Source: a virus | Length of the DNA stretch: 44,771 nucleotides | UHGV virus genome: UHGV-0180729 | Strand: one strand, 5' to 3' | In this document: in pieces, positions 8,568-8,596 of the stretch | Position numbering within the stretch: the stretch's first letter is position 1 | How the letters are laid out: every line of letters starts with the position of its first letter | Notes under the pieces: model-generated | The model's database searches: none | Told to the model about the DNA's origin: nothing | The model's input: the letters and a program-made list of their open reading frames with translations, nothing else | Translations under genes and position numbers: made by a program

Positions 8568-8596
8568 TTGCACACCCCAACATAATAGGGTACTAT
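8568..8596 (+). promoter_or_regulatory. Sigma70-like promoter, family B (TTGCAC-N17-TACTAT)
   Basis: TTACTTGCACACcccaacataatagggTACTATTCAC; near-identical copies at 10303-10331 and 30568-30596. Confidence 0.55.

Follow-up and report, generated by a model that had tools for sequence, protein, structure and literature searches.

The UHGV virus genome UHGV-0180729, a stretch of 44,771 nucleotides that was analysed in full and is called the window here, carries within a set of its promoters a short perfect inverted repeat, AATAG-N4-CTATT, and, adjoining two copies of this dyad, a gene for a Cro-like protein of 71 amino acids (aa) with a helix-turn-helix (HTH) domain. The reading that is on balance slightly favoured is that the dyad is a dispersed operator through which the Cro-like protein represses these promoters, its own included. 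BLAST assigns the window to the genus Kagunavirus (Guernseyvirinae), E. coli siphophages related to the Salmonella Jerseyviruses, where its relatives, Escherichia phage 26 and Bas76 among them, are ~88-94% identical to it, and since its length and gene order match the complete genomes of these relatives it is apparently a circularly permuted whole genome.

The dyad and its two promoter registers

A first-pass annotation of the window had described three near-identical promoters, at 8568-8596 and 10303-10331 on the plus strand and at 30596-30568 on the minus strand, and all three are present. The pattern TTGCRC-N17-TACTAT, with at most one mismatch, matches the window at exactly these three sites (0.39 expected; three or more in 0 of 100 shuffles), and their identity outside the hexamers is real, as a blind repeat search recovered both an inverted pair, I1 (8564-8601 versus 30563-30600, 38 nt, 95% identity), which is the longest inverted repeat of the genome, and a direct pair, D6 (8562-8603 versus 10297-10338, 42 nt, 81% identity). 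The related TACTATTCAC at 5168-5177 was likewise found, and TACTATTCA alone, with up to one mismatch, is not enriched (9 versus 7.65 expected). What had been described as a conserved spacer contains the perfect 14-bp dyad AATAG-N4-CTATT (core AATA-N6-TATT). The annotation missed this palindrome, the three leftward TTGAC(A/T)-N17-TATAGT promoters that also carry it and the adjacent Cro-like HTH gene, and its count of three was too low, there being at least seven promoter-associated copies of the dyad, in two registers relative to the -10 box.

The exact dyad occurs six times, at 1744, 5117, 8584, 10319, 30567 and 42954, against 0.025 expected from 1000 shuffles, an approximately 240-fold excess; with the one-mismatch copies at 5161, 14230, 19303, 21626 and 37416 the total is 11 versus 1.19 expected. 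Two repeat families, D2 (1737, 5110, 42947) and D5 (5116, 5160, 8583), both contain AATAG....CTATT, as does the spacer of the three promoters first noticed. When all palindromes with 5-nt arms and gaps of 0-8 were enumerated, this dyad was the commonest in the window (6 copies), in phage 26 (8) and in Bas76 (7), ranking above the GC-rich stems of terminators.

All six exact dyads lie within promoter-like elements with 17-bp spacers, in one of two fixed registers (counted from the hexamers, with the -10 hexamer set at -12 to -7). In class A, TTGCRC-N17-TACTAT, the dyad spans approximately -19 to -6 and overlaps the -10 box; in class B, TTGAC(A/T)-N17-TATAGT on the minus strand, it spans approximately -25 to -12, entirely within the spacer and abutting the -10 box, with its register shifted by 6 bp. 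The right arm of the dyad, CTATT, supplies most of the class A -10 hexamer, which accounts for the unusual TACTAT. The class B promoters are the three best matches to the sigma-70 consensus in the genome (11/12, 11/12 and 10/12), all with the dyad in the spacer.

The three class A promoters each stand directly upstream of an open reading frame (ORF) on the same strand, the first two following intrinsic terminators. Promoter 1 (8564-8601, plus strand; TTGCAC 8568-8573, operator AATAGGGTACTATT 8584-8597, TACTAT 8591-8596) stands at the head of the first block of small rightward genes (8706-9931), with the terminator upstream at 8475-8495. It is followed by a leader of ~100 nt (8600-8705) that is missing from phage 26 and Bas76, whose promoter runs into ...TATTGAAACGAGACAGAGGAG and the first gene; this leader may be an indel or an unannotated tiny ORF, and it was rejected as an RNA element (CTTATCG...CGATAAG pairing), as there was no Rfam match anywhere in the window and the folding z-score was -0.09 relative to shuffles. 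Promoter 2 (10299-10336, plus strand; TTGCAC 10303-10308, operator AATAGGCTACTATT 10319-10332, TACTAT 10326-10331) has its terminator upstream at 9973-9994, and the leader AAACGAGAGGAGAGA and an ATG at 10363 come after it. Promoter 3 (30563-30600, minus strand; TTGCGC 30596-30591, operator 30580-30567, TACTAT 30573-30568) heads, as the annotation had proposed, an inverted cassette of leftward genes lying within rightward tail genes. The cassette encodes a 97-aa membrane protein of the YebO-like, superinfection-immunity type (30523-30230), a metallophosphatase/DNA-repair exonuclease (30191-29061) and two further products (29064-28831 and 28834-28604), and it stops at a bidirectional terminator at 28580-28599.

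The class B promoters head leftward DNA-metabolism blocks, as judged by annotation and by synteny with relatives. The one at 5140-5112 (minus strand; TTGACA 5140-5135, operator 5130-5117, TATAGT 5117-5112; 11/12) heads the genes at 5079-4903 and 4903-4382 and onward to an exonuclease (3474-2233). That at 1767-1739 (minus strand; TTGACT 1767-1762, operator 1757-1744, TATAGT 1744-1739; 10/12) lies upstream of 1675-1049, which by synteny with Bas76 encodes a single-stranded DNA (ssDNA)-binding/annealing protein, and thus serves the side of the genome with the ssDNA-binding protein and the polymerase. The third, at 42977-42949 (minus strand; TTGACA 42977-42972, operator 42967-42954, TATAGT 42954-42949; 11/12), heads 42915-42712, 42712-42515 and the helicase gene 42518-41088.

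Two features of the predicted transcripts can be recorded alongside these promoters. After the promoter at 1767-1739, the predicted transcript 5' end (1713-1733, minus strand) reads CACTGGCCGGGCAGTTCCCGG, a stem-loop with a 5-bp GC stem that phage 26, Bas76 and SE2 all keep and Tsm2 keeps in part; ahead of the ssDNA-binding gene, this 5'-terminal hairpin may stabilise the transcript or control its translation. A leader/Shine-Dalgarno block, CAAACGAGAGGAGAGA..AATATG, is common to the class B unit at 5077-5101 (minus strand) and the class A unit at 10341-10365 (plus strand; 25 nt, 88%), and a related GAAACGAGA(C/T)AGAGG follows the class A promoters of SE2 and Tsm2. The enrichment of the 8-mer of this leader, AAACGAGA, in the window is only marginal (5 versus 1.6 expected), two of the five copies being in leaders.

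Three of the one-mismatch copies also stand at promoters or promoter-like elements. The first, AATATGGTACTATT (5161-5174, plus strand), lies ~30 bp upstream of the HTH gene (5205-5420), and its mismatch creates TGnTACTAT (TG 5165-5166, hexamer 5168-5173), an extended -10 element in the class A register without a usable -35; it is proposed from this layout to be an autoregulatory site. The second, ACTAGTTGACTATT (14230-14243, plus strand), overlaps the -35 of a promoter TTGACT-N17-TATATT (14235-14263), which comes after a terminator-like hairpin with a T run (~14185-14212), heads the next rightward block and has a lone CTATT arm abutting its -10. It is kept in phage 26 and Bas76, with the mirror variant AATAGTTGACTAGT in SE2, and may be a low-affinity operator of that block, its membership in the regulon being uncertain. 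The same uncertainty attaches to the third, the half or variant site AATAGTTGACTTTT (21626-21639, plus strand), which overlaps the -35 TTGACT of a promoter with TGnTAAGCT. Here the element at 21611-21660, AACTATTCGAATAGTTGACTTTT, consists of an inverse dyad, CTATT-CG-AATAG (21619-21630), fused to the half-site and followed by the extended -10 TGCTAAGCT, and it is conserved in all three Kagunavirus genomes examined. The promoters of the structural blocks carry no full dyad, two of them having these variant sites over the -35 (14230 and 21626). The candidate leftward promoters at ~8169-8225, for an excisionase-like gene and the helicase-primase unit, have no dyad, so that this unit is apparently outside the regulon.

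Conservation in related phages

The arms of the dyad are kept at orthologous promoters in Kagunavirus, Jerseyvirus and Serratia phage Tsm2. For class A, the sites orthologous to promoter 1 were aligned from phage 26, Bas76, SE2 and Tsm2. In the orthologues of Jerseyvirus SE2 and of Tsm2 the -35, both arms and the -10 are kept, the remainder of the spacer shows no relationship (ACCCCAACAT, TAACCAAATAT, TATGTGGCAT) and the bases at the free centre of the dyad vary. Among 11 class B orthologues from three genera, AATAG is present in 9 and CTATT in 10, while all four central bases and the flanking spacer vary, and the arm variants AATCG and CGATT fall at the same symmetric position. Sigma-70 does not read the spacer DNA in which the class B arms lie, so that their conservation requires more than promoter function.

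A set of relatives sampled independently of the motif, 80 IMG/VR loci anchored on the HTH gene, gave the same picture. Each of the 37 Kagunavirus loci carries 2-6 exact dyads per 20 kb or less, two sites being in every case located in the 200 bp that precede the HTH gene, and the dyad is the top palindrome with 5-nt arms in most of the 37, ties occurring only in two short loci; Jerseyvirus loci carry 2-4 exact dyads. In 36 unique Kagunavirus regions upstream of the HTH gene the arms are invariant, the centre of the dyad is the most variable part of the core, and the 5161 site is nearly invariant. Across 48 genomes or loci, 182 of 200 exact sites belong to class A or class B. In L001 (10340-10353) and several Kagunavirus loci (for example L008, 13351, and L011, 14750) an extra exact dyad, GGTCAATAGGTTACTATTTGG, was observed after GGTGTAACAGG repeats and just upstream of a terminator, ACGCTGCTACACAGCAGCGT; it has no obvious promoter, and its counterpart in the window, ~9945-9958, appears degenerate by eye (AATAGTTTGGGAT).

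More distant loci with HTH proteins only ~41% identical (L055, L057, L067) retain a 10-40-fold enrichment of the core AATA-N6-TATT. In L067 the recognition helix is TQGGIGHI versus SQGAINQL, and three of its four sites have AATAC/GTATT arms at orthologous promoters, two of them as perfect dyads; in L057, position 5 of the dyad is G or C in either arm. This covariation of helix and operator, as far as it can be read from sequence, supports a co-evolving protein-DNA pair, in part and not cleanly.

The first-pass annotation had taken the conservation beyond the hexamers as a sign either of a phage-specific factor or of recent copying of a promoter cassette. The former is supported by the dyad, as the arms of the 14-mer are kept across genera while the centre and flanks drift, although the likely role of such a factor would be to block the sigma-70 RNA polymerase and not to recognize the promoter. 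Recent copying holds only partly: sites 1 and 3 share the non-operator spacer ACCCCAAYAT, which differs in Jerseyvirus and Tsm2, and it is to recent copying or gene conversion within Kagunavirus that their extra identity beyond the operator is attributed. The pair 8564-8601/30563-30600 thus has the properties of a duplicated cassette, the copy at 10297-10338 has them in part (81%), and no such relationship exists between class A and class B.

The candidate binder and competing explanations

That the dyad is a protein-binding regulatory site is considered likely, and, provided that it is, the 71-aa HTH protein is probably what binds it. The gene (5205-5420, plus strand) is monocistronic, ends at a terminator at 5409-5429 and has leftward operons on either side, the divergent region there holding two dyads (5117-5130 and 5161-5174); two dyads directly upstream of such a gene are, going by their placement, a classic autoregulatory layout. 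The protein matches Pfam HTH_3 (E-value 1.2e-12) as well as HTH_19 and HTH_31, and PHROGs families of transcriptional repressors and regulators. Its best PDB sequence matches by phmmer, at ~1e-5, are 434 Cro and the N-terminal domain of the 434 repressor. An AlphaFold2 model from the single sequence has five helices and a mean predicted local distance difference test (pLDDT) score of 82.9, and the top Foldseek matches of this model in the PDB, with template modelling (TM) scores of ~0.70-0.77, are 2cro (0.70/0.76, 40% identity) and 1pra. The 434 Cro protein binds, as a dimer, 14-bp operators of the form ACAA-N6-TTGT, whose geometry AATA-N6-TATT shares. No HTH or repressor match was obtained for the 58-aa product of the gene that diverges from the HTH gene (5079-4903).

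The likeness to phage 434 extends to several levels, as 434 Cro is also a 71-aa, all-helical HTH_3 protein, giving the best matches in both sequence and fold, and the 434 OR and OL operators are also 14 bp long, keep their outer arms while varying at the centre, overlap core elements of promoters and adjoin the regulator gene in a divergent region. The system described here, in which binding is predicted, differs in its arms, AATA(G) versus ACAA, in having single versus tripartite operators, and in having at least 6-7 of them scattered over the genome versus two clusters; moreover, no partner cI or lysogeny module is annotated in the relatives, and the phage group is regarded as virulent. Neither a cI nor an integrase is annotated in the complete relatives. 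The arrangement is therefore not that of a lambdoid immunity region, there being no partner cI, two sites in the regulatory region instead of three, and single sites elsewhere.

In the mechanism proposed, the host RNA polymerase would fire the dyad-bearing promoters upon infection, following which the HTH protein would accumulate and occupy each operator as a dimer. As the operator overlaps the -10 in class A and fills the spacer in class B, binding would exclude RNA polymerase, and the outcome would be either a co-ordinate repression or a buffering against the rising copy number (dosage) of the genome. If the HTH protein does bind the dyad, repression is very likely its effect. The predicted regulon would comprise the two rightward units of small genes, the three dyad-bearing leftward DNA-metabolism units, the inverted cassette and, via the weaker 5161 site, the regulator's own gene.

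It has to be noted that several points weigh against this repressor-operator model. The searchable literature holds no binding, footprint or transcription-start results for any Guernseyvirinae phage. The class A hexamers match the consensus poorly (7/12; TTGCAC 3/6, TACTAT 4/6) and fall below the threshold of the promoter scan, even if they retain the TTG and the -10 positions 2 = A and 6 = T and are conserved in position across genera; the -10 box used may conceivably be another one, C/TATAAT, which lies 7 nt upstream and would likewise be overlapped by the operator. Because the comparison loci were anchored on the HTH gene, the co-occurrence of this gene with the motif is not an independent test of their relationship. 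In Cornellvirus the HTH gene is retained, but the orthologous sites are degenerate and non-palindromic (AATAC-N4-CTAAT). Genera with the same arms have HTH orthologues of only 42-51% identity, with different recognition helices (SQGAINQL, SQSLITHL, SQGMLNHL), so that a changed specificity might have been expected.

A further point of this kind comes from expression data. The only RNA sequencing (RNA-seq) of a Kagunavirus is that of phage K1B4, in which one "helix-turn-helix domain" gene was classed as early. By gene order, and with the K1B4 gene numbers mapped to the present genome by inference, this gene (_008) is probably the excisionase-like one, and the Cro-like gene is probably _004 ("specific DNA binding", adjoining the AAA-domain gene _005), which was classed as middle. 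The late class includes the superinfection-immunity gene _045, the methylases _053/_054 and the DNA polymerase _057, which are downstream of dyad promoters; it is to this class, at a very coarse time resolution, that the orthologue of the first gene of the inverted cassette belongs, a cassette that the first-pass annotation had tied to the early program. A probable middle regulator with late putative targets is not what a simple early shut-off would predict. The classes are mildly consistent with the dyad units behaving as one group. K1B4 was sampled from 5 to 120 min, probably over several rounds of infection, and its supplement holds no table of phage gene classes; because of this coarse sampling, the multiple rounds, the missing table and the ambiguous naming of the HTH genes, the data set is treated as uninformative on the sign of regulation.

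One rival to the repressor-operator model is that the dyad is a genuine operator of some other protein, either a host factor shared by Escherichia, Salmonella and Serratia or a different small phage protein, which is possible but unlikely. A conserved host factor would more easily account for identical arms despite 42-51% identical Cro-like proteins with different recognition helices, and the early region has many small ORFs without annotation; on the other hand, autoregulation would account for the paired sites that all Kagunavirus loci have directly upstream of the HTH gene, and the change of arms in L067 tracks the phage lineage and not the host. We know of no E. coli regulator with the consensus of the dyad, FNR, CRP, OxyR, MntR and ArgR differing in arms or spacing. 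The second small DNA-binding protein of this phage, which has no integrase, is an excisionase/AlpA-like product (phrog_66; 7966-8169, minus strand) with a patchy distribution by tblastn, as it is found in most Kagunavirus and Jerseyvirus loci and not in Tsm2, L016, L026 or more distant relatives. It was rejected as the binder, since it is absent from the complete Tsm2 genome, from L016 and L026 (where its position is covered), from L054-57 and from L067, all of which keep the operator core; its absence from operator-bearing genomes likewise counts against the general proposal of another phage binder.

Another rival is to dispense with any extra factor and to regard the elements as a duplicated or gene-converted sigma-70 promoter cassette, the palindrome being a by-product of the promoter sequence. 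In favour of this are the 95% identity of sites 1 and 3 over 38 nt, which includes the ACCCCAAYAT not conserved in other genera, the partial coincidence of the class A right arm with the -10 box, and the leader common to two promoters (repeat I10, AAACGAGAGGAGAGA). Such copying does not, however, explain why the dyad recurs in class B, whose hexamers differ and whose register is offset by 6 bp, why the arms within the spacer are near-invariant across three genera, or why the class A left arm, which has no role in sigma-70 recognition, is kept; nor does it explain an exact dyad at ~240-fold over chance that also ranks first among palindromes in genomes chosen regardless of it. As a complete account it is thus improbable.

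Activation, whereby a dyad-binding protein would offset the weak class A -35 or provide a late switch-on, is very improbable, even though it would make sense of the weak class A hexamers (7/12), of the several genes downstream of dyad promoters that are late in the K1B4 RNA-seq, and of the variant sites overlapping the -35 of two promoters of later blocks. The site overlaps the -10 of class A or fills the 17-bp spacer of the near-consensus class B, and class B, at 10-11/12, needs no activator. Classical activators do not bind at such positions, and MerR-type spacer activators need spacers of 19-20 bp, which none of the six promoters has.

The elements have also been published under another label, as the genome report of phage fBC-Eco01 (PMC9825357) lists seven such 20-mers (TGAATAGTACCCTATTATAT and related; consensus tgAATAGTa-ccTATTat-T) as "Phage RNAP promoters" (PP1-PP7 in its Table S2), and the report on phage Golestan likewise lists seven promoters found by PHIRE, for which these elements are the dominant repeated 20-mer. 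As the phage encodes no RNA polymerase, this label cannot stand. Of the 13 ORFs of at least 330 aa that lie wholly within the window, 10 belong to replication, packaging, head or tail by PHROGs, 29061-30191 is the DNA-repair exonuclease, and the last two correspond, from their position in relatives, to the major head protein and to its antisense frame; synteny identifies the ORF that extends beyond the window ends as the DNA polymerase, and the only ORF above 800 aa is a tail protein. No RNA polymerase is annotated in the relatives either, including two fully annotated ones. The elements do resemble T7- or N4-type promoters in being 20-bp sequences repeated upstream of gene blocks, but differ from them in being palindromic and set in two registers within sigma-70-type hexamers, and promoters for a phage-encoded polymerase are effectively refuted. 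A repeat reported for Serratia phage eta was compared as well and is a different sequence. In the literature searched, no paper was found that interprets the motif as an operator or deals with the HTH protein, so that, while the repeat was already known, its interpretation as an operator appears to be new.

Setting among phage regulatory systems

Several other repeats and structured elements were observed in the window. Two 42-nt sequences with 83% identity, at 28571-28612 and 40409-40450, contain bidirectional terminators (AAGGCCCC....GGGGCCTT) at the ends of the two rightward blocks of tail genes, with a third, weaker copy at 33671-33712 (repeat D1), which looks like a terminator cassette family parallel to that of the promoters. 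The direct repeat D7 (11205-11246 and 11381-11422, plus strand; 42 nt, 81%, 176 nt apart) lies within the small rightward ORFs 11133-11333 and 11288-11554 and suggests an internal duplication of a coding segment. The inverted repeat I16 (7455-7476 and 38942-38963; 22 nt, 95% complementary, CCAGTTTCCGGGTCTTTTACGG) connects the helicase-primase gene with the tailspike gene and may be due to chance.

As promoters, the dyad-bearing elements resemble the sigma-70 promoters T7 A1-A3 and lambda PL/PR in having -35 and -10 boxes at 17 bp, in standing at the boundaries of gene blocks downstream of intrinsic terminators and in their expected use by the host RNA polymerase; they differ from these in the weak hexamers of class A and in the conservation of a spacer sequence that sigma-70 does not require. 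As an operator set, the closest parallels are C1 of phage P1, the conserved inverted repeats at the early promoters of the Streptomyces phage phiC31 and the "stoperators" bound by gp71 of mycobacteriophage L5, in which one small repressor acts on many scattered single sites, many of them in promoters. The likeness is that here, too, one protein is predicted to control many transcription units via single dispersed sites. P1, phiC31 and L5 are temperate and their repressors maintain lysogeny, and the sites of P1 and L5 are asymmetric and bound by proteins of other families, whereas the present phage has no integrase or cI-type repressor and its operator is a short perfect dyad. Most likely, then, the system is of a familiar kind, an HTH repressor with its operator, the less common traits being the approximately seven promoters, the two registers and the lack of a cI partner.

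The Guernseyvirinae, Kagunavirus and Jerseyvirus among them, are some of the most often isolated siphophages of Escherichia and Salmonella, have been widely put forward for therapy and food biocontrol and serve as small chassis for synthetic biology, and yet their transcription programme is essentially unstudied. Reading the dyads as an operator regulon would correct the published annotation and explain the odd TACTAT -10 box, and it provides a testable wiring diagram, with one 71-aa protein, approximately seven sites and two promoter architectures. It would also offer a compact, orthogonal repressor/operator pair that is potentially reusable.

A more far-reaching consequence would be that a single Cro-like protein with operators distributed over the genome acts as a global off-switch, giving a non-integrated, repressed carrier state with superinfection immunity, without cI or integrase, in phages that are catalogued as strictly virulent and find use in therapy and biocontrol. 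This is a speculative proposal and probably wrong, but such a state would be mechanistically conceivable if the operator set shut down the majority of early, replication and accessory promoters simultaneously. For the Jersey-like phage SGP-C, in which this HTH gene is present, lysogen-like, immune and perhaps episomal states have been claimed in one report. For safety claims made about these phages, a repressor able to shut off most non-structural promoters would be the first component to examine if carrier or pseudolysogenic states were suspected.

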